A stretch of DNA of 64,000 nucleotides from a virus, in IMG/VR virus record IMGVR_UViG_3300021963_004854, positions 96,001-160,000 of that record. The stretch is one strand, 5' to 3'. Below are positions 1 through 37,427 of this stretch, piece after piece; the first letter of the stretch is position 1, and the number at the start of each line of letters is the position of its first letter. The notes under the pieces are model-generated. The model searched no databases and was not told where the DNA came from. It was given only the letters and a program-made list of their open reading frames with translations. A program made the position numbers and the translations under genes.

Positions 1-757
1 TGCTTTGGGTCAGAACAAGAACGTTCTCTATATTACTCTTGAAATGGCCGAAGAACGTATCGCAGAACGTATCGATGCCAATTTGATGAACGTCAACATC
101 CAAGAACTCAAAGACCTTTCGAAGTCCATGTTTGACCAACGCATTGCCAAGATTCGCTCAAAGACAGAAGGTCGTTTGATTGTCAAAGAATATCCAACTG
201 CATCTGCCCACGTCGGACATTTCAAGGCACTATTGAACGAACTCCAGTTAAAGCGAAACTTCAAGCCAGATGTTATCTTCATTGACTACCTAAACATCTG
301 TGCCTCTAGTCGATACAAAGCATCCTCTGGTGCCAACTCCTACACTGTCATTAAGGGTATCGCAGAAGAACTTCGTGGTCTGGCAGTAGAGTTTGATTTG
401 CCTATCGTCTCCGCCACTCAGACAACCCGTAGTGGTTATGCCAACTCGGACGTTGAACTGACTGACACCTCAGAATCATTCGGTCTGCCAGCAACGGCTG
501 ACTTGATGTTTGCTCTTATCGCAACAGAAGAACTTGACAAAATGGGTCAGTTGATGGTGAAGCAGTTGAAGAACCGATACAATGACCCTGCAATGAACAA
601 GCGTTTCATGGTAGGTATTGACCGCGGTAAGATGAAACTCTATGATTTAGAAGACTCTGCCCAGGCTGGTATTACGGACTCAGGTCAAGATGATGTTCCT
701 GTGTTTGAAAATACTACTATTGGAAAGCGTAGAGATTTTTCTAAATTTGATTTTTGA
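1..757 (+). CDS. 41: T4 gp41-like replicative DNA helicase (5'-truncated by window)
   Basis: DnaB-family motifs YITLEMAEERIAERIDAN, IFIDYLNI, SATQTTRSG, ESFGLPATAD, KQLKNRY. Confidence 0.95.
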   Translation, partial: ALGQNKNVLYITLEMAEERIAERIDANLMNVNIQELKDLSKSMFDQRIAKIRSKTEGRLIVKEYPTASAHVGHFKALLNELQLKRNFKPDVIFIDYLNICASSRYKASSGANSYTVIKGIAEELRGLAVEFDLPIVSATQTTRSGYANSDVELTDTSESFGLPATADLMFALIATEELDKMGQLMVKQLKNRYNDPAMNKRFMVGIDRGKMKLYDLEDSAQAGITDSGQDDVPVFENTTIGKRRDFSKFDF

Positions 758-29258: not shown

Positions 29259-29346
29259 GGAAGCGTGGGTGAGTGGTTGAAACCTACAGTCTTGAAAACT
29301 GTCGTACCGCAAGGTACCGTGGGTTCGAATCCCACCGCTTCCTCCA
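29259..29346 (+). tRNA. tRNA-Ser(TGA)
   Basis: Loop CTTGAAA, long variable arm, CCA. Confidence 0.95.
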
Positions 29347-29350
29347 GTTT

Positions 29351-29426
29351 GGGGATGTAGTCCAATGGCAGAGACAGAGGACTTAAAATCCTTCCAGTGT
29401 GGGTTCGAGTCCCACCATCCCTACCA
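29351..29426 (+). tRNA. tRNA-Leu(TAA), short variable loop
   Basis: Loop CTTAAAA, 5-nt variable region, CCA. Confidence 0.9.
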
Positions 29427-29427
29427 A

Positions 29428-29503
29428 TGCCCCTTGGTGTAATTGGCAACACGTCGGATTTTGATTCCGAAAAGTCCAGGTTCGAGCCCTGGAGGGGCAT
29501 CCA
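29428..29503 (+). tRNA. tRNA-Gln(TTG)
   Basis: Loop TTTTGAT, CCA. Confidence 0.93.
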
Positions 29504-29522
29504 TTCTTAGAAAGGTTATATA

Positions 29523-29759
29523 ATGAGTGATGTTGTAGCAGTAGACCAACTTCGTCTGTTTATTGAACGTATTGAAAACATCGAAGTGGAAATTGATGCG
29601 AAGAAGACTGACCGCAAGGAAGTCTATTCAGAATTGAAGGGTGAAGGCTTTGATGCCAAGGCAGTTCGTGCTATTGTGCGCCTCCGTAAGAAGGAAGCAC
29701 ATATCCGTCAAGAAGAAGATATGATTCTTGATACATATCGAAATGCAATTGGCGTTTAA
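29523..29759 (+). CDS. gapR: GapR (DUF2312) nucleoid-associated protein
   Basis: QLRLFIERIE..KEVYSELKGEGFDAKAVRAIVRLRK..ILDTY. Confidence 0.9.
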   Translation: MSDVVAVDQLRLFIERIENIEVEIDAKKTDRKEVYSELKGEGFDAKAVRAIVRLRKKEAHIRQEEDMILDTYRNAIGV

Positions 29760-30350
29760 TTAAAAAGTTCCGGGGTCTATCAACCCAACTTCTTTAAATG
29801 CCCATGCTCTTTCGTTGCATTGCCAACAAGAGCCACAACGTTCTCCTGTAGTTTCAGTGCAACTATGAGAGAGTTTAGATATATCTTCTAAAATTCCCGC
29901 CTGATGTGCTAACTTGACTGTTTCGCTTTTATCTATTTTTGCAAATGGAAAATGCCAGCCAGTATAGTTCGCATCAGGCGGAATTCTTACTGGCTCTGTT
30001 CCAGGTAGTGTTACGGGTGGATTTTGAGTGTCCGCACTTATCAATGTCTTAAATCCAAAACGAAATAGTTGTTCGGCTGGATATGAGATATGTCTACTAT
30101 GATGTAATCCCACCGGAATTGAAACGATTAGATGGTCTATCTCAATTTCATGTAGTTTTTCTGCCCATTCGCAAATCGATTTACCAAAATCTACTGCGGC
30201 AGAGCCTCTATCTATCGTAATGCAACGTAGAGAGTTTAAGCCGCTTTTCTTTGCTTCAATGCAATATAAATGAAGCATGAGGGCGCTATCGAAACCGCCG
30301 CTAATAAACAGTCCGAAATTACCCTCGGGAATAGTAATTGAATACGTCAT
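29760..30350 (-). CDS. QueC-like PP-loop ATPase
   Basis: ISGGFDSA; HSCTE..CGSCWQCNER; start taken at MTYSIT. Confidence 0.75.
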   Translation of the reverse strand: MTYSITIPEGNFGLFISGGFDSALMLHLYCIEAKKSGLNSLRCITIDRGSAAVDFGKSICEWAEKLHEIEIDHLIVSIPVGLHHSRHISYPAEQLFRFGFKTLISADTQNPPVTLPGTEPVRIPPDANYTGWHFPFAKIDKSETVKLAHQAGILEDISKLSHSCTETTGERCGSCWQCNERAWAFKEVGLIDPGTF

Positions 30351-30428
30351 AGATGAACCTTTAATATAATCACGATTATATTTAGTTTCGAATTTATGCT
30401 TGACATTTGGTAGTGAATTAGTTATATA

Positions 30429-31472
30429 ATGATGATGAAGAAAAAATATCAAATTACTCACATGGGCAAGACCCTCAACACCGACCACTGGTATGACTTA
30501 CCAGAAGATAAATGTCTGGAGTTGAAGGCTGCGTATTATCAAAAGCCAGATTTTGATTTGGTTGAGAAAAATCTGCAGGCCGTGCGCAACGGCGGCACTG
30601 TTATCAGTACCATTACTAGCTATTATGTGAAAGACCTAATGGCTAAAGTCAAGTTGCAATCTCCTCGTTGGTCTATCGAACAAGTGTTTGAGTCCAACGA
30701 TTTGATACGATACTTTTGGAGCCGAGTGCTTTCAAGCGATAAAGTATACCCAAAGACGGATTCAGATATCAAGAACTTTGAGGCTGCCCTGCGACTTAGT
30801 GGCGGTGGTGTTGCGATGAAGCCGTCTAACTATCCTATTAAGTCAGTAGACGAGGTGTTATCCAAATATAACATCAATGGTAAATACTATGATTTCTCGT
30901 GTGGTTGGGGCGTAAGATTGCTCTCGGCAATGAGAAATCGGGTTGAGTATTACGGCACTGACCCGAATAATCTGTTGGTAGACCGACTTAGGCAGATGGC
31001 CACAGATTACAATACTGTAAATGGTACGAATGCATCGTATGACATTAGATGCCATGGTTCTGAAACATTCGTGCCAGAATGGGAAAACACTATCGGAGTA
31101 GCCTTTAGTAGCCCCCCGTATTTCAGTCTTGAAGACTATGGTGTTGGCAATCAGTCATATAAGCCTGGGACTTCCTATCAAGAGTGGCTAGATAACTATC
31201 TGCGACCCACGATAGAGAACATCAAGAAATATTTGATTGAAGACGGCAAGATGCTCGTTAACATCAAAGATTTCTTAGATTACAAGCTATGCGCTGATAC
31301 TAGAGCCATTGCAGAAAGTCTAGGGTTTCATTATGTTGAAACACTCACGTTGAAGAACATAACGAGGCCAAGTGCCAAAGCAGATTTGAATACGGATGAA
31401 GGCATTATGGTGTTCTCGAAAAAGCCTGTGCAGCCTAACCCATTCAGCGAAACGCTATTCATTTTTGAATAA
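30429..31472 (+). CDS. amino (N4-C/N6-A) DNA methyltransferase
   Basis: Motif I DFSCGWG precedes motif IV FSSPPYF. Confidence 0.85.
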   Translation: MMMKKKYQITHMGKTLNTDHWYDLPEDKCLELKAAYYQKPDFDLVEKNLQAVRNGGTVISTITSYYVKDLMAKVKLQSPRWSIEQVFESNDLIRYFWSRVLSSDKVYPKTDSDIKNFEAALRLSGGGVAMKPSNYPIKSVDEVLSKYNINGKYYDFSCGWGVRLLSAMRNRVEYYGTDPNNLLVDRLRQMATDYNTVNGTNASYDIRCHGSETFVPEWENTIGVAFSSPPYFSLEDYGVGNQSYKPGTSYQEWLDNYLRPTIENIKKYLIEDGKMLVNIKDFLDYKLCADTRAIAESLGFHYVETLTLKNITRPSAKADLNTDEGIMVFSKKPVQPNPFSETLFIFE

Positions 31473-31484
31473 CAAAATTAGTGG

Positions 31485-31547
31485 TTGACATTTACCTGCG
31501 AATCAGCTATAAAGAAAGAGTAGTTGATGACGAGGTGATTCGAAATG
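31485..31547 (+). promoter_or_regulatory. early promoter-RBS cassette with two GANTC sites
   Basis: TTGACA-N17-TATAAA; GAATC 31500, GATTC 31537. Confidence 0.8.
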
Positions 31548-31931
31548 CTTACTCTTGCCGATATTAATGCTGCCACCAATTCTAAAGATGGCAATATCTA
31601 TTCCGACCTCTACAAGGATGTTTACGGCAGCCGTCCTCGGTATGCCCAGTTCGCATCCATCGAAGAGTTCGATGCGGATTTCGAACGCCTTGTGGCTCGT
31701 CTGGCCGAACAGATTGACGAAGATAAGATTCGTCAGGATGCAAATCTTGAAGCATTCAAGGTGCGCGTGGCAGAAACCATGCTTCTTTGTAACTGCGACA
31801 AGGTTCGCGCCGTAGAAATCATCGCCGATGCTGAAGGCGAACTTGAGAACCTTGAGTTCTACAGTTACGAACGCCTTGAGTGGTACTTCGATATTAAATT
31901 CGGAGATATCAAGCAGTGGATGGCTGAATAA
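31545..31931 (+). CDS. early hypothetical protein
   Basis: YSDLYKDVYGSRPR motif; follows cassette. Confidence 0.7.
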   Translation: MLTLADINAATNSKDGNIYSDLYKDVYGSRPRYAQFASIEEFDADFERLVARLAEQIDEDKIRQDANLEAFKVRVAETMLLCNCDKVRAVEIIADAEGELENLEFYSYERLEWYFDIKFGDIKQWMAE

Positions 31932-31937
31932 GTTTTT

Positions 31938-32012
31938 GCGCCTGTAGCTCAAAGGTAGAGCCAGCCCCTCATAAGGGCCAGGTTGCGGGTTCGAGTCCTG
32001 CCGGGCGCACCA
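31938..32012 (+). tRNA. tRNA(CAT), probably Ile2 (lysidine)
   Basis: Loop CTCATAA, G1-C72, Ile2-like body, CCA. Confidence 0.8.
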
Positions 32013-32022
32013 AATATAATAC

Positions 32023-32084
32023 TTGACATTCTCTGTAAATCTGCTATTATGAGAATGTAGTAAGTGAGAAAGTGATTCGTTATG
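32023..32084 (+). promoter_or_regulatory. early promoter-RBS cassette
   Basis: TTGACA..TGCTATTAT..GAGAAAGTGATTCGTTATG. Confidence 0.8.
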
Positions 32085-32282
32085 GAAGTTTTTGCATTGT
32101 TAGGTGAATGGGATTACGAAGGTTCTGTGCTCCTTGGCGTGTATGCGTCTCAAGATGAAGCACGGAATGCCCATGGTGTGTATACTCGTGATGGCGATCG
32201 GCTCATCGACCGCTACTATGTTGAGCGTCGGACGCTCGGTGCACCTGTAGATTCCGATGAGTATCGGTACTACATCGGTTAA
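32082..32282 (+). CDS. early hypothetical protein
   Basis: Follows cassette. Confidence 0.7.
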   Translation: MEVFALLGEWDYEGSVLLGVYASQDEARNAHGVYTRDGDRLIDRYYVERRTLGAPVDSDEYRYYIG

Positions 32283-32292
32283 AGTTTAACAT

Positions 32293-32368
32293 GGACGATT
32301 AGCTCAGTCGGTAGAGCGCGGGACTCTTAATCCTTAGGTCGTAGGTTCGAATCCTACATCGTCTACCA
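32293..32368 (+). tRNA. tRNA-Lys(CTT)
   Basis: Loop CTCTTAA, CCA. Confidence 0.93.
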
Positions 32369-32374
32369 TTTCAC

Positions 32375-32450
32375 GGACACTTAGCTCAGTAGGTAGAGCA
32401 ACGGGCTTTTAACCTGTAGGTCCTGGGTTCGAACCCCAGAGTGTCCACCA
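32375..32450 (+). tRNA. tRNA-Lys(TTT)
   Basis: Loop CTTTTAA, CCA. Confidence 0.95.
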
Positions 32451-32455
32451 TATTT

Positions 32456-32531
32456 GCGAGTGTAGCTCAGTTGGTAGAGCAAACGACCGATAATCGTTAG
32501 GTCACAGGTTCGAACCCTGTCACTCGCACCA
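32456..32531 (+). tRNA. tRNA-Ile(GAT), C33
   Basis: Loop CCGATAA, CCA. Confidence 0.92.
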
Positions 32532-32532
32532 T

Positions 32533-32604
32533 ACCAGCAGAACAAGTGTTCGACCGACTCTCATAAGGTTGGTTCGGGTGGAGCGTTACCACCTGCTGGT
32601 ACCA
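32533..32604 (+). tRNA. atypical tRNA(CAT), candidate elongator Met
   Basis: ACCAGCA/TGCTGGT acceptor + A + CCA; minimal D arm GAAC-AAGT-GTTC; loop CTCATAA; T arm GGTGG-AGCGTTA-CCACC. Confidence 0.65.
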
Positions 32605-32605
32605 T

Positions 32606-32683
32606 GTCACGATGGCAGAGTGGTCCAATGCAACGGATTGCAAATCCGTAAAGCCGCCGGTTCGAATCCGGCTCGTGACTCCA
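32606..32683 (+). tRNA. tRNA-Cys(GCA)
   Basis: Loop TTGCAAA, U73, CCA. Confidence 0.93.
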
Positions 32684-32687
32684 CAAT

Positions 32688-32762
32688 GCGGGTGTAGCTC
32701 AGTGGTAGAGCATCTCGTTGCCAACGAGACGGTCGGCGGTTCGAATCCGCTCCCCCGCTCCA
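32688..32762 (+). tRNA. tRNA-Gly(GCC)
   Basis: Loop TTGCCAA, CCA. Confidence 0.95.
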
Positions 32763-32765
32763 AAT

Positions 32766-32840
32766 GGCCCGGTCGTCTAGTGGCTAGGACACCGCCCTTT
32801 CAAGGCGGAGAAGCGGGATCGAAACCCGTTCGGGCTACCA
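32766..32840 (+). tRNA. tRNA-Glu(TTC)
   Basis: Loop CTTTCAA, T loop ATCGAAA, CCA. Confidence 0.92.
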
Positions 32841-32856
32841 TTTAGAAAGTGTTGTT

Positions 32857-33033
32857 ATGGTTAAAATGATTTTTGCATTTTTGTTTATTTTTGCCCTTGT
32901 ATTCTTTGGAATTCAAATTGTTCGAGATATGACAAAAAGTGAAAAATTAGGCTTGACAAAGTTGTTCGCCTATAGTATAGTGTGTTCTGTAGCAGCGATG
33001 GCCGTTGCCACAGCAATTGTTTTGATTTTCTAA
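32857..33033 (+). CDS. small 2-TM protein (58 aa, not in ORF track)
   Basis: MVKMIFAFLFIFALVFFG..CSVAAMAVATAIVLIF. Confidence 0.65.
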   Translation: MVKMIFAFLFIFALVFFGIQIVRDMTKSEKLGLTKLFAYSIVCSVAAMAVATAIVLIF

Positions 33034-33047
33034 GGAATAAAGTTATT

Positions 33048-33845
33048 ATGAAAAGTGTTACCAAAGCTGTTCTTCTCGCTGGCCTTATGGCAACGACTGC
33101 CGCTTGTACCCGGATTGAAACAGGTGAAGTCGGCGTTCGTCGCTCGTTTGATAAGACCATCGAAACTACCGAACTTCTGCCTGGTTCTGTAAACCAGACT
33201 ATCTTCGGTGATGTTATGACCTTTCCCACAAAGGACGTTCAGGTCGATGTTACTGATTTGACGCCTCTGGCATCTGATAACTCGACTGTTGCTGACTTCG
33301 ATATGGCAGTCATCTATTCGATTAATCCTGGTTCGGTTGCCGAACTCTACATCGAAAAGAACCGCGGTTTCCACGCTGATACCGAAGAAGGTGATACGCT
33401 GTTGATGTATAACTACATCCGCCAGCTTGGCCGTAATGCTGCATATAAGGTTGCTCGTCGTTACGAGTCCTTGAAGATGGCAGATAACCGCGCAGAGATG
33501 GAACAGATGATTCGCCAGGAAATCGTTAACAGTCTTGTTGCCGAAAAGCTAGATGGTGCAATTTCTGTTTCACAGGTTCTTGTTCGCCAGGTAAAGCCCG
33601 CTGCAAACATCGTAGCATCTGCTAACGCCCTTGTTCAAGCCCAGAATGCTGAAAAGCAGAAGCAGGTAGAAGTTCGCACCGCAAAGCTAGAAGCACAGCG
33701 AATTGCCGCTTTGAATGCCAACGCTGGTGCTACCAAGTATATGGAAGCAACCGCAATTGTTACGATTGCAGAAGCAGTGAAAGACGGTAAGGTTAATACC
33801 ATCGTCATTCCTTATGACTTCAAGGGTATTGTGAACGTTAAGTAA
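33048..33845 (+). CDS. SPFH/band-7 domain lipoprotein
   Basis: Lipobox TAAC, RIETGEVGVR, C-terminal coiled coil. Confidence 0.85.
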   Translation: MKSVTKAVLLAGLMATTAACTRIETGEVGVRRSFDKTIETTELLPGSVNQTIFGDVMTFPTKDVQVDVTDLTPLASDNSTVADFDMAVIYSINPGSVAELYIEKNRGFHADTEEGDTLLMYNYIRQLGRNAAYKVARRYESLKMADNRAEMEQMIRQEIVNSLVAEKLDGAISVSQVLVRQVKPAANIVASANALVQAQNAEKQKQVEVRTAKLEAQRIAALNANAGATKYMEATAIVTIAEAVKDGKVNTIVIPYDFKGIVNVK

Positions 33846-33853
33846 TACTGATT

Positions 33854-33940
33854 GGAAGGTGGGCAGGACGGTAATGCAACGCACTGCTAATGCGTCTACT
33901 AGAAATGGTAGAGTGGGTTCGACTCCCACACCTTCCGCCA
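33854..33940 (+). tRNA. tRNA-Ser(GCT)
   Basis: Loop CTGCTAA, long variable arm, CCA. Confidence 0.93.
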
Positions 33941-33959
33941 GTTATAAGTAATAGAATAT

Positions 33960-34037
33960 GGTGGATGTAGCTCAGTTGGTTAGAGTGTCGGCTTGTGATG
34001 CCGAATGTCGCGGGTTCGAGTCCCGTCATTCACCCCA
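33960..34037 (+). tRNA. tRNA-His(GTG) with G-1:C73
   Basis: Loop TTGTGAT; G at -1, C discriminator, CCA. Confidence 0.95.
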
Positions 34038-34100
34038 TTAAAAAAATAAAAAAATTGAAAATAATACTTGACATTTTCGACAAAGTAGTATATATATTAG

Positions 34101-34128
34101 TTCTGTTCTTTGACATTGTTAGAAGTTT
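34101..34128 (+). promoter_or_regulatory. rrn-type boxA antitermination leader (copy 2)
   Basis: 28-nt identity with 29226-29253; follows TTGACA promoter at 34068. Confidence 0.65.
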
Positions 34129-34170
34129 CTAAGTTTGTGTCGGGAGGGTTTCGGCCCTCCCACATAACTT

Positions 34171-34321
34171 ATTTAATTACTCCTGCTGAGAGTAGCGCAT
34201 ATGGACGCATATGCTAGGCGGGCTGGGTGGGCCATCTACCAGTCCTGAAATAATCTCAGCAATGGCTTAGGAGAGGAAGCACCTCACTCCGAAATTCGCT
34301 CATGAGCAGGAGTAATTAAAT
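34171..34321 (+). ncRNA. unidentified structured RNA closed by a perfect 17-bp stem
   Basis: ATTTAATTACTCCTGCT / AGCAGGAGTAATTAAAT with three internal hairpins. Confidence 0.6.
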
Positions 34322-34328
34322 GAGTTTT

Positions 34329-34404
<76 letters not shown>

Positions 34405-34411
34405 TTCTATA

Positions 34412-34490
34412 GCTAAACTACTCGCATGCCGTATGGTGCATGGAGTCTGTCGAGAATGTTTAGCGTAAGCACCAAGACGTGAGGTGCTTA
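34412..34490 (+). ncRNA. unidentified structured spacer RNA
   Basis: GCTAAAC/GTTTAGC stem plus TAAGCACC/GGTGCTTA hairpin. Confidence 0.4.
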
Positions 34491-34493
34491 TAT

Positions 34494-34568
34494 TCCCTAA
34501 TGGCGCAGCGGTAGCGCAGTTGACTGTTAATCAATTGGTCGGTGGTTCGAATCCATCTTAGGGAGCCA
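34494..34568 (+). tRNA. tRNA-Asn(GTT)
   Basis: Loop CTGTTAA, G73, CCA. Confidence 0.95.
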
Positions 34569-34574
34569 GTTTGA

Positions 34575-34649
34575 CGCAGGGTGGAGCAGAGGTAGCTCGT
34601 CTGGCTCATAACCAGAAGGTCGTCGGTTCAAGTCCGACTCCTGCAACCA
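34575..34649 (+). tRNA. initiator tRNA-fMet(CAT)
   Basis: C1:A72 mismatch, loop CTCATAA, CCA. Confidence 0.92.
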
Positions 34650-34651
34650 GT

Positions 34652-34750
34652 TTAGTATCTTTGATCTGGGACACGCATACTAAGTCGTGCATATAAACTA
34701 AGATGCCCTGCATTCAGGGCTACGTAGGGGAAGATCCTACAAGATACTAA
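34652..34750 (+). ncRNA. unidentified multibranch RNA
   Basis: TTAGTATCTT/AAGATACTAA closing stem; GCCCTG/CAGGGC and GTAGG/CCTAC hairpins. Confidence 0.5.
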
Positions 34751-34861
34751 AACACCGCCGCCCGTATGGTGTATAACAATCCCGGGCCTAGTTTCTCGTA
34801 AATATTTTTCAAAAAAGTATTTACAAACACCACACAGTGGTGTATAAGTAGAGAATAAGAA

Positions 34862-35708
34862 ATGGCGGTATAGCGTCATTAGGGTAACCTTCGGCAACGA
34901 AGGCCAAAGCAGGGACTCCTACGTACCTGCGCCGGTAACGGTCCATCTATACAAGCCCAGGTAAGGGTTGTCTCGGCCATGGCCGTAAGCAATCCCCGTC
35001 AGTAGAATGGCGGTAGGCAGTAAGTGAGTGATATAAGTCCGAAAGGATATGAACAGAGCCAGTCGGTGAGTTCTAATAGACTGTGGTGGTCTAGCTGTAT
35101 CGAACCAAACTCGCGAATGCTGAAAAACTAATGGGTAATCGCTGAGTCTGATCTAGCAAGAAAAGGCAAAGCGGTAGCACAATAGTTGAACCGATGAGGG
35201 GAGACTAGAAGTGCGGTTGATTAGTCCGCAAGACGAAAGACATGAGGAGTGTTGTATTTTGTATCTAACAAGATACGAAGCAACTGGAGCAGCACTTCTT
35301 GGTAGGTTCGCAAATTGCTTAATGGTAAAGCAACTGACTCTTAATCAGTAGATTCTAGGTTCAAATCCTAGTTTGTAACAAAAAGCGAAAGTCTGCTCCA
35401 GTGCTATGTGAAAGGTGCTTAATACCTAACACGGAAGTGAATTGGGTTCACGGATTCCCGCAAGGATGAAGTGATTGATCCGAGTGAAGACGTAGCGGTT
35501 TAGCGACTGCGAACAGCTTGCAAGGCTGGCGGAAGAACGAAGGTCGAATAGCATAGCATGATAAGTGATAAGCCACACTTCAAAAAAGGCAGCACTGAGG
35601 AATACTAGATGACCAGCGATGGCTCTAGTGGATAACGAGTTAACACTTCTCGCAAGGAAGTCGGTACGGCTCAAAGGTCCTCAACTAAAAGCAGTAATCT
35701 CATGCTTT
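34862..35708 (+). ncRNA. GOLLD-like giant structured RNA (~850 nt)
   Basis: No credible ORF, own promoter (TTTACA..TATAAG, 34820-34848), many GCAA/GAAA-capped hairpins, embedded tRNA domain, terminal AAAGCA-GTAATCTCA-TGCTTT hairpin, within a phage tRNA cluster; boundaries approximate. Confidence 0.7.
35308..35379 (+). tRNA. CCA-less tRNA-Lys(CTT)-like domain inside the giant RNA
   Basis: D arm GCTT-AATGGTA-AAGC, ACTGA-CTCTTAA-TCAGT, CTAGG-TTCAAAT-CCTAG, weak acceptor, no CCA. Confidence 0.75.
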
Positions 35709-35714
35709 ACAAAG

Positions 35715-35801
35715 ACTTATTAGATGAACACATCAAACCCACTGGGCGGCAGGTCGACTTAATGCTGCGATAGCGGTCCCTGGTGTGTTCTTCTAATAAG
35801 T
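35715..35801 (+). ncRNA. unidentified rod-shaped RNA
   Basis: ACTTATTAGA-T-GAACACATCA pairs with TGGTGTGTTC-T-TCTAATAAGT. Confidence 0.55.
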
Positions 35802-35804
35802 TTT

Positions 35805-35880
35805 GGGGAATTAGCTCAGATGGTAGAGCGCCAGCTTTGCAAGCTGGATGTCAACGGTTCGATCCCGTTATTCTCCACCA
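35805..35880 (+). tRNA. tRNA-Ala(TGC)
   Basis: Loop TTTGCAA, G3:U70, CCA. Confidence 0.95.
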
Positions 35881-35885
35881 ATATA

Positions 35886-36015
35886 GACCACCTATGCTGA
35901 ACCTCGTGGGGAACCACATAGAGAAAGTGGTAGTGTATGCTGTTGCAACAGTAATTGCTATCTAGGAAGATTGCAACGTCCGGAAGTAAGCAATCAAGGC
36001 ACACTGCGGGTGGTC
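35886..36015 (+). ncRNA. unidentified multibranch RNA
   Basis: GACCACCT/GGGTGGTC closing stem; GTGG-GGAA-CCAC; GTAGTGT/ACACTGC. Confidence 0.5.
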
Positions 36016-36024
36016 ACTCTTTTT

Positions 36025-36107
36025 GCGCCTATGGTGGAATTGGTAGACACGCTGGTTTTAGGTACCAGTGCGAAAGCGTGGGGGTTCGAGTCCCTCTAGG
36101 CGTACCA
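36025..36107 (+). tRNA. tRNA-Leu(TAG)
   Basis: Loop TTTAGGT, variable arm, CCA. Confidence 0.93.
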
Positions 36108-36113
36108 TTATAT

Positions 36114-36189
36114 GCTCCTGTAGCTCAGTTGGTAGAGCATCGGTTTGAAGAACCGAGTGTCGGCGGTTCGAACCCGTCTGGGAGCACCA
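36114..36189 (+). tRNA. tRNA-Phe(GAA)
   Basis: Loop TTGAAGA (G37), CCA. Confidence 0.92.
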
Positions 36190-36194
36190 GCTAT

Positions 36195-36279
36195 GGGTCG
36201 GTAAAGCCAGTGGCTCTGGCAGTCGGACTGTAAATCCGATCCGTTTTCGGGGGAGGATCGATACCTCACTGGCCCACCA
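36195..36279 (+). tRNA. tRNA-Tyr(GTA), divergent D and T loops
   Basis: Loop CTGTAAA, variable arm, T loop ATCGATA, CCA. Confidence 0.85.
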
Positions 36280-36280
36280 A

Positions 36281-36357
36281 GGTCTGGTAGCTCAGTTGGT
36301 TAGAGCGTCGGCCTGTCACGCCGAAGGTCGCGGGTTCAAGTCCCGTCCAGATCGCCA
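36281..36357 (+). tRNA. tRNA-Asp(GTC)
   Basis: Loop CTGTCAC, G73, CCA. Confidence 0.95.
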
Positions 36358-36376
36358 TTACAATAAATATATTCAT

Positions 36377-36449
36377 GCGACTGTTCTCCTGGGTGAGGAC
36401 TCAGCCTTCCAAGCTGACGGAGAGGGTTCGAATCCCTTCGGTCGCTCCA
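36377..36449 (+). tRNA. tRNA-Gly(TCC)
   Basis: Loop CTTCCAA, U73, CCA. Confidence 0.9.
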
Positions 36450-36451
36450 AT

Positions 36452-36532
36452 GCCCCCGTATACCCTCTGGCTACGAACCAGTGGAAAGGTTAACTGAATT
36501 ACATGCAGGTTTGAGTCCTGTCGGGGGCTCCA
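36452..36532 (+). tRNA. D-armless tRNA-Arg(ACG)-like RNA with enlarged variable region
   Basis: GCCCCCG/CGGGGGC acceptor + T + CCA; CTGG-CTACGAA-CCAG; GCAGG-TTTGAGT-CCTGT. Confidence 0.7.
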
Positions 36533-36554
36533 TTCTCAACGAAGGAAAAATAAT

Positions 36555-36734
36555 ATGAATATCAAAACTTACATGGCTCTAGCAGTTGCCGCTCTTACTG
36601 CCGCTTGCGCTCCAGCTTCGGAAAAACCATCGGTTGCAGAAGCCGCTGGTCCAGCCGCAGAAGAAGCACTTGCTACAGCAAATGCAACAGAAGCAGTAGA
36701 GCCTGCTCTTGGTGAAAATGAAAAGCCAAAGTAA
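36555..36734 (+). CDS. small Ala/Glu-rich lipoprotein (59 aa, not in ORF track)
   Basis: AAGGA RBS; MNIKTYMALAVAALTAA-C lipobox. Confidence 0.75.
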   Translation: MNIKTYMALAVAALTAACAPASEKPSVAEAAGPAAEEALATANATEAVEPALGENEKPK

Positions 36735-36744
36735 TTAAAAGTTT

Positions 36745-36821
<77 letters not shown>

Positions 36822-36827
36822 GTTTTT

Positions 36828-36902
36828 GTCGGTGTGTTGTAACGGTAACATGCAGGTCTCCAAAACCTTGCGATCCGGGTTCGAATCCTGGCACCCTCGC
36901 CA
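36828..36902 (+). tRNA. tRNA-Trp(CCA), two acceptor-stem mismatches
   Basis: Loop CTCCAAA; GTCGGTG vs CACCCTC. Confidence 0.85.
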
Positions 36903-36920
36903 TTTTATGACAGGTGACTT

Positions 36921-37361
36921 ATGTATGATAAAGCAAGAGAAGCAATTCTAAACTCTAGTGAAACGTCATCTGTTTATATCGGTGCCGATTCTATTAGGTT
37001 CAAGCGTAAAGACGGTCATTGGTATGCTAAGTATTCTACCGTCATTATTCTTCATATGGATTCTAAGCACGGTGCTAGAATTTTTCATAAAAACATTGAA
37101 ATGCGTGACTTTGGTAACTTACGCCAACGTCTAATAGCGGAAGTTGGATTTGCTATCGAAGCCGCAACGGCAATACTTGACGTTTTGGGTGAAAGAAAGT
37201 TGGAAATTCATCTTGACATTAACCCAAATCCAAAGTATAAGAGTAATGTAGCCGTGAAAGAAGCACTCGGCTACGTTAAAGGAACTCTTGGTATTGATGC
37301 TAAGATCAAGCCAGAGTCCTTCGCTGCAACACATGCGGCGGACCACGTTGTGCGGGGTTAG
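36921..37361 (+). CDS. RNase H-like YkuK/DUF458 protein
   Basis: VYIGADS, IHLDINP, KIKPESFAATHAAD. Confidence 0.8.
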   Translation: MYDKAREAILNSSETSSVYIGADSIRFKRKDGHWYAKYSTVIILHMDSKHGARIFHKNIEMRDFGNLRQRLIAEVGFAIEAATAILDVLGERKLEIHLDINPNPKYKSNVAVKEALGYVKGTLGIDAKIKPESFAATHAADHVVRG

Positions 37362-37427
37362 CTCAGTTGGTAGAGCGTCTGCTTTACACGCAGAATGTCG
37401 GCGGTTCGAGCCCGTCACTCCGTACCA
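37352..37427 (+). tRNA. tRNA-Val(TAC), overlaps upstream stop codon
   Basis: Loop TTTACAC, CCA. Confidence 0.95.

Follow-up and report, generated by a model that had tools for sequence, protein, structure and literature searches.

GOLLD RNAs have been known since 2009, and their RNA-only cages, larger than the ribosome, since 2025. A GOLLD RNA combines a universally conserved 3' region with a less conserved 5' region of ~400 nucleotides (nt), and two members, the 14-mer env-38 (PDB 9MEE) and the 12-mer of Streptococcus agalactiae (PDB 9L0R), were seen as protein-free nanocages by cryo-electron microscopy, with transfer RNAs (tRNAs) "sometimes" found within GOLLD's linker, which faces the cage interior (Kretsch et al. 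2025, PMC12286853; PMC12990946). GOLLD has already been listed in the Caulobacter phiCbK group, DSS3_MAL1, Roseobacter phage DSS3P8 and Mesorhizobium phage Cp1R7A (Kretsch 2025, Supplementary File 3), and the published alignment also spans phages of Roseobacter/Ruegeria, Erythrobacter, Vibrio and Mycobacterium. In Mycobacterium aubagnense, a pseudo-tRNA lies inside GOLLD and no separate transcript of it was detected (Behra et al. 2019, PMC6582537). Here we describe a GOLLD gene in the tRNA island of an uncultured phage, within a window of 64,000 nt that corresponds to positions 96001-160000 of the 171,566-base-pair (bp) IMG/VR record IMGVR_UViG_3300021963_004854, rated complete. Like the GOLLDs of env-38 and S. 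agalactiae, this one has two domains, measures ~850 nt, lies in a phage tRNA island and ends in a terminal GUAAUCUCA hairpin; like env-38, it lies downstream of a tRNA-Met. Unlike the solved GOLLDs, it is followed past its canonical 3' end by a conserved hairpin with a 23-bp stem, and its carrier is a T4-like (Kyanoviridae-related) phage. It shares with M. aubagnense the presence of a tRNA-like gene inside GOLLD, there within a horizontally acquired tRNA cluster, but M. aubagnense is an actinobacterium and its GOLLD belongs to a different clade.

Comparison with Rfam supports positions 34863-35708 (+) as a complete GOLLD RNA gene. An earlier note, made from the letters of the window, had proposed "a GOLLD member or a new relative" at 34862-35708; the first alternative is retained and the second abandoned because the whole of model RF02032 (positions 1-416 of 416, not truncated) matches with Infernal at 187.3 bits, above the curated gathering score of 150. 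RF02032 models only the conserved 3' domain of GOLLD, and the 5' half lies outside it. The RNAs ROOL, OLE and HEARO, which the same note had wished to see compared, are excluded because a permissive E-value scan of 34600-35900 gave no such match, returning only GOLLD, tRNAs and one chance sub-threshold match. The features from which the note had argued are all present in the sequence. No open reading frame (ORF) longer than 82 amino acids occurs within 34862-35708, and the purine content of the stretch (58.2% vs 52.6% window-wide) ranks 5th among 1264 sliding windows. GNRA-capped hairpins lie at ~35039 (GTCCGAAAGGAT), ~35226 (TCCGCAAGA), ~35458 (CCCGCAAGG) and ~35649 (TCTCGCAAGGA), and the terminal AAAGCA/TGCTTT hairpin is invariant among relatives. 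The junction strand AAAGCRAAAGUCU is also present and kept in relatives. The proposed left boundary proved accurate to one base, since conservation in the alignment of homologues with their flanks sets in sharply at T34863, and the right boundary, 35708, is the canonical right end of GOLLD.

The 5' half is a genuine domain of structured RNA, common to dozens of viral contigs, as its covariation lies far above that of shuffled and slid controls. A blastn search against cultured phages returned nothing for 34862-35243. Viral contigs were gathered by short conserved GOLLD motifs, the junction pattern matching 64 viral loci (designated below by L numbers), and nhmmer identified ~55 full-length homologues of 34860-35249 in IMG/VR contigs, the closest 5' domains being those of L006 (96%), L008 (89%) and L033 (87%). 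RNAalifold, applied to an alignment of 42 non-redundant 5'-domain sequences (A2), proposed 84 pairs, and compensatory double changes occur in 71 of these. Standard pairs fill 95.8% of the paired cells, compared with 74.1% when the 3' partners are shuffled (none of 500 shuffles reached the observed value) and 35-40% when the partners are slid by 1-3 columns; cells with double changes number 758, vs 100-137 in the controls. Covarying homologues, for which the earlier note had proposed to look, were thus found for the 5' half, and they were found for the other half as well.

Two elements overlooked by the earlier note are a hairpin that trails the canonical GOLLD end and a tRNA-shaped module in the linker (Table 1). 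The trailing hairpin lies outside the Rfam model and ends where the first base of tRNA-Ala begins, with a minimum free energy of -46.2 kcal/mol (z -7.6). In an alignment of the window with 35 distinct homologues (A4), its stem is paired in 93.3% of cells, vs 78% in shuffled and 37-51% in slid controls, and compensatory changes affect 15 of the 23 stem pairs. The sequence is kept as well as the pairing, with UWGAUGA in the 5' arm opposite UCUUCWA in the 3' arm around the conserved U.U mismatch, which suggests a recognition site for a protein or nuclease; the hairpin is probably a processing element. A terminator scan gave no + strand intrinsic terminator between GOLLD and tRNA-Ala. In L032, an intrinsic terminator (CCCGCCACTGTGGCGGG followed by a T-run) stands just after the GOLLD terminal hairpin in place of the trailing hairpin, so that the canonical 3' end of GOLLD is the natural end of the transcript in some phages.

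The tRNA-like module is an insert relative to RF02032, situated in the linker between the 5' and 3' domains and followed directly by a conserved AAAAAGCGAAAGUCUG that is kept there in nearly all homologues. It folds as a cloverleaf with the GG of the D-loop, a T-loop and a 7-nt anticodon loop carrying U33 and A37, and it duplicates the anticodon of a free tRNA-Lys(CTT) of the same window. Its acceptor stem has a C2.A71 mismatch and a G3.U70 wobble, and a C discriminator is followed by AAAAAG; among the 25 tRNA-shaped genes of the window it is the only one without an encoded CCA, which is present in all 24 free tRNAs. An alanyl-tRNA synthetase identity via G3.U70 was considered and rejected, the wobble of the window's module not being conserved in the lineage. 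Such a module is carried by 58 of 68 oriented GOLLD loci, at a fixed distance of 63-72 nt past the junction motif. In these loci CCA ends occur in 5 of 58 embedded modules vs 573 of 588 free same-strand tRNAs, and an independent metagenome set, which added at least 43 new unique modules, gave 6 of 43 vs 371 of 387 among the matches listed. Even when each module is allowed its best register, all 7 bp of the acceptor stem form in only 2 of 44 unique modules, vs 89% of 575 free tRNAs. Across modules, the D-loop GG and the T-loop GGTTCRAnnCC are invariant and the anticodon stem covaries. The best blastn match of 41 of the 44 modules, often with another "anticodon", is an embedded module rather than any of 452 free tRNAs, and the modules therefore form one lineage evolving inside GOLLD; that of the window likewise matches best the embedded module of L065 (92%) rather than its own free tRNA-Lys(CTT). 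The modules called Leu(tag) or Ser(tga) measure 71-77 nt and lack a long variable arm, while their free counterparts, Leu and Ser tRNAs of the same loci with identical anticodons, measure 82-91 nt. About 1 in 7 modules among the matches listed have 8-nt or 6-nt loops, A34 anticodons occur, and the anticodons comprise at least 19 types once the metagenome set is included. The embedded anticodon is that of a free tRNA in 14 of 51 loci vs 9.0 expected (permutation P 0.017, the loci being related and mostly partial), an excess that is suggestive only.

The anticodon loop changes much more rapidly than the rest of the RNA. The GOLLDs of L008 and L011, from phages that share 98-99% identity over 6 kb, show 19 differences in 786 aligned positions, of which 5 fall in the 7-nt anticodon loop (CTCTTAA vs ATTGAAG) and 14 in the other 779 positions, none being in the remaining 67 nt of the module (Fisher P ~1e-7); given the identity of the two phages, neutral drift predicts well under one loop change. 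L091 has the identical 67-nt body with a third loop, TCTGAAT, although the rest of its GOLLD is only 89% identical to that of L008. A single scaffold cluster (identity of at least 88% without the anticodon arm) bears 8 different loops, a scaffold with an ATTCC/GGAAT stem bears at least 9 across both data sets, and conversely CUCUUAA and CUUCUAA each occur on 5 scaffold clusters; body and anticodon thus do not co-evolve as one isoacceptor identity. L006, a relative with 94% identity to the window, differs from it over the entire module. No compensating partner of the loop was found inside GOLLD, as no other difference between L008 and L011 is complementary to either loop, and any partner would therefore lie outside the RNA. 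As a check for gene conversion, the free tRNA-Ser(TGA) of L011 was compared with the module: it has the same anticodon stem and differs at loop positions 32 and 38, and gene conversion is not claimed. From these sequence comparisons we conclude that the loop is probably under diversifying selection or templated replacement. No description of this turnover was found in a literature search that did not include Weinberg 2009 and Morgado 2020, so that priority is not established; Behra et al. 2019 (PMC6582537) make no comparative statement on it.

Taken together, these observations are best explained, with a probability of about 85%, by a complete GOLLD gene in a tRNA island, with its own promoter, a 3' end made by RNase P, a cage-forming product and the tRNA-like module as an integral part. 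Transcription would start near 34855 from the TTTACA-17-TATAAG site and continue into the downstream tRNAs, and the 3' end would result from cleavage by RNase P at tRNA-Ala (35805), a double-strand-specific nuclease possibly also cutting the trailing hairpin. Like its homologues, the GOLLDs of env-38 and S. agalactiae, the ~850-nt RNA would self-assemble without protein into a hollow 12- to 14-mer cage, in which the 3' domains would form the rings and the 5' domains the caps, with the linker and tRNA-like module facing the interior. Our best guess is that the function of the cage is tied to tRNA or translation during lytic growth.

Several points weigh against this reading. Every mechanistic step is drawn from homology, and nhmmer, run with the A2 profile on the initial 155 nt of env-38 (from the supplement of the paper), gave no match. 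No sequence similarity between the window's 5' domain and the start of env-38 could be detected, and for lack of that match no sequence homology to the solved 5' domain is claimed; by eye, the order of elements (a P1 hairpin, a GNRA-capped P2 and an AAAG motif) resembles the start of the P1-P13 domain of env-38. The module scores well as a tRNA (62.3 bits), with a good cloverleaf, the canonical 7-nt loop CUCUUAA with its U33 and A37, and the invariant D-loop GG and T-loop GGTTCAAATCC. CCA-less phage tRNAs are known in T4, and ~12% of the modules elsewhere, among the matches listed, have CCA and good, even near-perfect acceptor stems (L041 and L023, for example). The embedded element could then be a genuine tRNA-Lys(CUU) gene and GOLLD an elaborate precursor or storage form, from which RNase P and RNase Z would excise a tRNA to be completed by a host or phage CCA-adding enzyme, the GOLLD halves staying associated or being discarded. 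The commonest loops, Lys-CUU, Arg-UCU, Leu-UAG and Ser-UGA, are those of typical phage-supplied tRNAs, and an "inhibited storage" idea has been proposed in a review (PMC12990946). We nevertheless regard this as unlikely: the phage encodes CCA in every other tRNA and already has a free tRNA-Lys(CTT), the module has a C2.A71 mismatch, a fully paired acceptor stem is rare in its lineage, and members of that lineage have 8-nt or 6-nt loops, anticodons with A34 and, on short-arm scaffolds, Leu or Ser anticodons. Moreover, anticodon switches on a constant body would break synthetase identity for most amino acids, and no tRNA-sized product was seen in M. aubagnense (PMC6582537). We take the module to be, most likely, a tRNA-like domain integral to GOLLD and not a tRNA released for translation. 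That it acts as the specificity element of GOLLD, a constant CCA-less body whose loop is swapped under diversifying selection to bait or decoy a host factor with anticodon specificity, is a speculative and rather improbable extension; a cage would in that case present 12-14 copies of a single anticodon loop, here Lys-CUU, to a host anticodon nuclease or tRNA-modifying enzyme.

The other points concern the promoter. The site that the earlier note had recognized is present, but a generic promoter scanner left it uncalled owing to the final G of its -10 hexamer, and transcription could just as well read through from the upstream tRNAs. The interval from tRNA-Met to GOLLD holds no + strand terminator, the 24 free tRNAs (29259-37427, plus one at 796; ARAGORN) are all on one strand with short spacers, and in the more distant L005 and L015 a tRNA or unrelated sequence stands right before GOLLD, without such a promoter; the tRNA directly before GOLLD in such relatives implies that read-through transcription also occurs in the family. 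GOLLD might accordingly have no promoter of its own and be a segment of a long polycistronic transcript of the tRNA island, TTTACA-17-TATAAG being fortuitous, a possibility that we consider somewhat unlikely. Both hexamers, still 17 nt apart, recur in L006, L008/L011 and L023 while the spacer sequence has diverged, with 9 of its 17 bases differing in L006. TATAAG also serves as the -10 at other TTGACA-type promoter-like sites of the phage (28651, 37213 and 57367), and an A/T-rich tract lies just upstream of TTTACA. This comparative support makes a dedicated GOLLD promoter probable. Between tRNA-Met and the promoter, a minus-strand terminator-like hairpin (GCCCTGAATGCAGGGC with a T-rich tail) was noted at 34705-34720, with no minus-strand gene near it.

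Table 1 Coordinates of the GOLLD gene, its parts and its neighbours (positions in the window unless a locus is named)
Feature	Position	Strand	Evidence
GOLLD 5' domain, ending in junction motif GTTGATTAGTCCGCAAGACGAAAGACA (35216-35242)	34863-35243	+	homologues and covariation
GOLLD conserved 3' domain (RF02032 match)	35244-35706	+	187.3 bits, E-value 3.6e-51
tRNA-like module in GOLLD linker, Lys-CUU-like, loop CUCUUAA	35308-35379	+	Rfam tRNA, 62.3 bits; ARAGORN tRNA-Lys(ctt)
Conserved single-strand motif AAAAAGCGAAAGTCTG, GOLLD linker/junction strand, directly after the module	35380-35395	+	Rfam consensus AAAAAGCAAAAGUCU
Terminal hairpin AAAGCA-GTAATCTCA-TGCTTT, conserved loop GUAAUCUCA	35688-35708	+	last helix of the Rfam model
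Conserved trailing hairpin, 23-bp stem, one U.U mismatch, variable apex	35712-35804	+	fold and covariation
Putative sigma70-like promoter, TTTACA (34820-34825), 17 nt, TATAAG (34843-34848)	34820-34848	+	sequence and comparison
tRNA-Met(CAT), upstream of GOLLD	34575-34649	+	Rfam, ARAGORN
tRNA-Ala(TGC), downstream of GOLLD	35805-35880	+	Rfam, ARAGORN
Free tRNA-Lys(CTT)	32293-32368	same as other tRNAs	ARAGORN
Modules sharing an identical body	L008:781-854; L011, same position; L091, ~65 nt after motif 378-404		

The carrier is classed as a T4-like (Kyanoviridae-related) uncultured phage of ~172 kb because it encodes a T4-type Gp23 capsid protein (E-value 5e-145), with which its counterparts in Methylophilales phage Melnitz and Pelagibacter phage HTVC008M (Kyanoviridae) share 66% identity. 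The "T4-like alphaproteobacterial phage" of the earlier note is hence upheld in its first part; an alphaproteobacterial host is plausible, not proven, because the phage has a two-piece transfer-messenger RNA (tmRNA) of alphaproteobacterial type (71.8 bits), for which only Caulobacter matches among the control genomes. The GOLLD model gave no match in Melnitz, HTVC008M and Synechococcus phage S-H38, the three closest cultured relatives, and no Gp23 was found in the closest GOLLD-bearing contigs, which are fragments (6-59% complete). The junction motif of this GOLLD subtype is present in 4 of ~185,000 prokaryote genomes (three contigs of metagenome-assembled genomes and one Flavobacterium) and in more than 180 viral or metagenome contigs, so that the subtype appears to be carried almost exclusively by non-integrated viruses. 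An attempt to deduce the host from prophage copies was dropped, four prokaryote genomes being uninformative. The middle of the tRNA island also contains a 287-amino-acid ORF (32982-33845, +) of the PHROG "lipoprotein" family phrog_200 (E-value 1e-33). In the tRNA islands of other GOLLD-bearing viral contigs, amber-reading free tRNAs with a CTA anticodon (ARAGORN "tRNA-Pyl") were identified at L015:668-743, L048:1697-1773 and L074:4636-4710, and these may be suppressor tRNAs; the L015 and L048 contigs exceed 200 kb.

Full-length RF02032 matches were obtained in DSS3_MAL1 (L002, MN602268), the Sinorhizobium phage Phosso (L003, PV764938) and the Caulobacter phage BL57 (L004, PQ287320). All three have a tRNA-shaped insert at the same linker position as the window, with other anticodons (Arg-TCT, Gly-TCC), and DSS3_MAL1 shares the window's 5' domain; identity of the alphaproteobacterial-phage GOLLDs to that of the window is 69-73%, over part of the 3' domain only. 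In the three GenBank records GOLLD is unannotated, with only the inner "tRNA-Arg" or "tRNA-Gly" indicated, or nothing. DSS3_MAL1 has a two-piece tmRNA directly after GOLLD. tRNA-like domains are known elsewhere, in the bacterial Y RNA YrlA (cited in PMC9569102), in tmRNA and at the 3' ends of plant-virus RNAs. As in these, the GOLLD module keeps the tRNA elbow (D-loop/T-loop) as part of a larger RNA and would not be used for decoding; whereas those domains have no true anticodon loop or a fixed one, the GOLLD module has a canonical 7-nt loop that is swapped between close relatives.

The occurrence of GOLLD in phage tRNA islands, including those of phages of Alphaproteobacteria, has already been published, and the window provides one more member. 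On its own, this copy adds little: a T4-like lineage, well-defined ends, a likely promoter and a new trailing hairpin. What is added here is the exact ends, a 5' domain family supported by covariation, the hairpin that trails GOLLD and an account of how the linker module behaves across loci. In ~100 related loci this module is almost always present, no longer shows the hallmarks of a functional tRNA and changes its loop in jumps on a fixed body. If this pattern holds, diversifying pressure on GOLLD would be strongest at the anticodon loop, making it an obvious handle for genetic tests of GOLLD function in cultivable carriers such as the Caulobacter phiCbK-type phages and DSS3_MAL1. A decoy role, if true, would give GOLLD a testable part in the arms race that phages and bacteria wage around tRNA.

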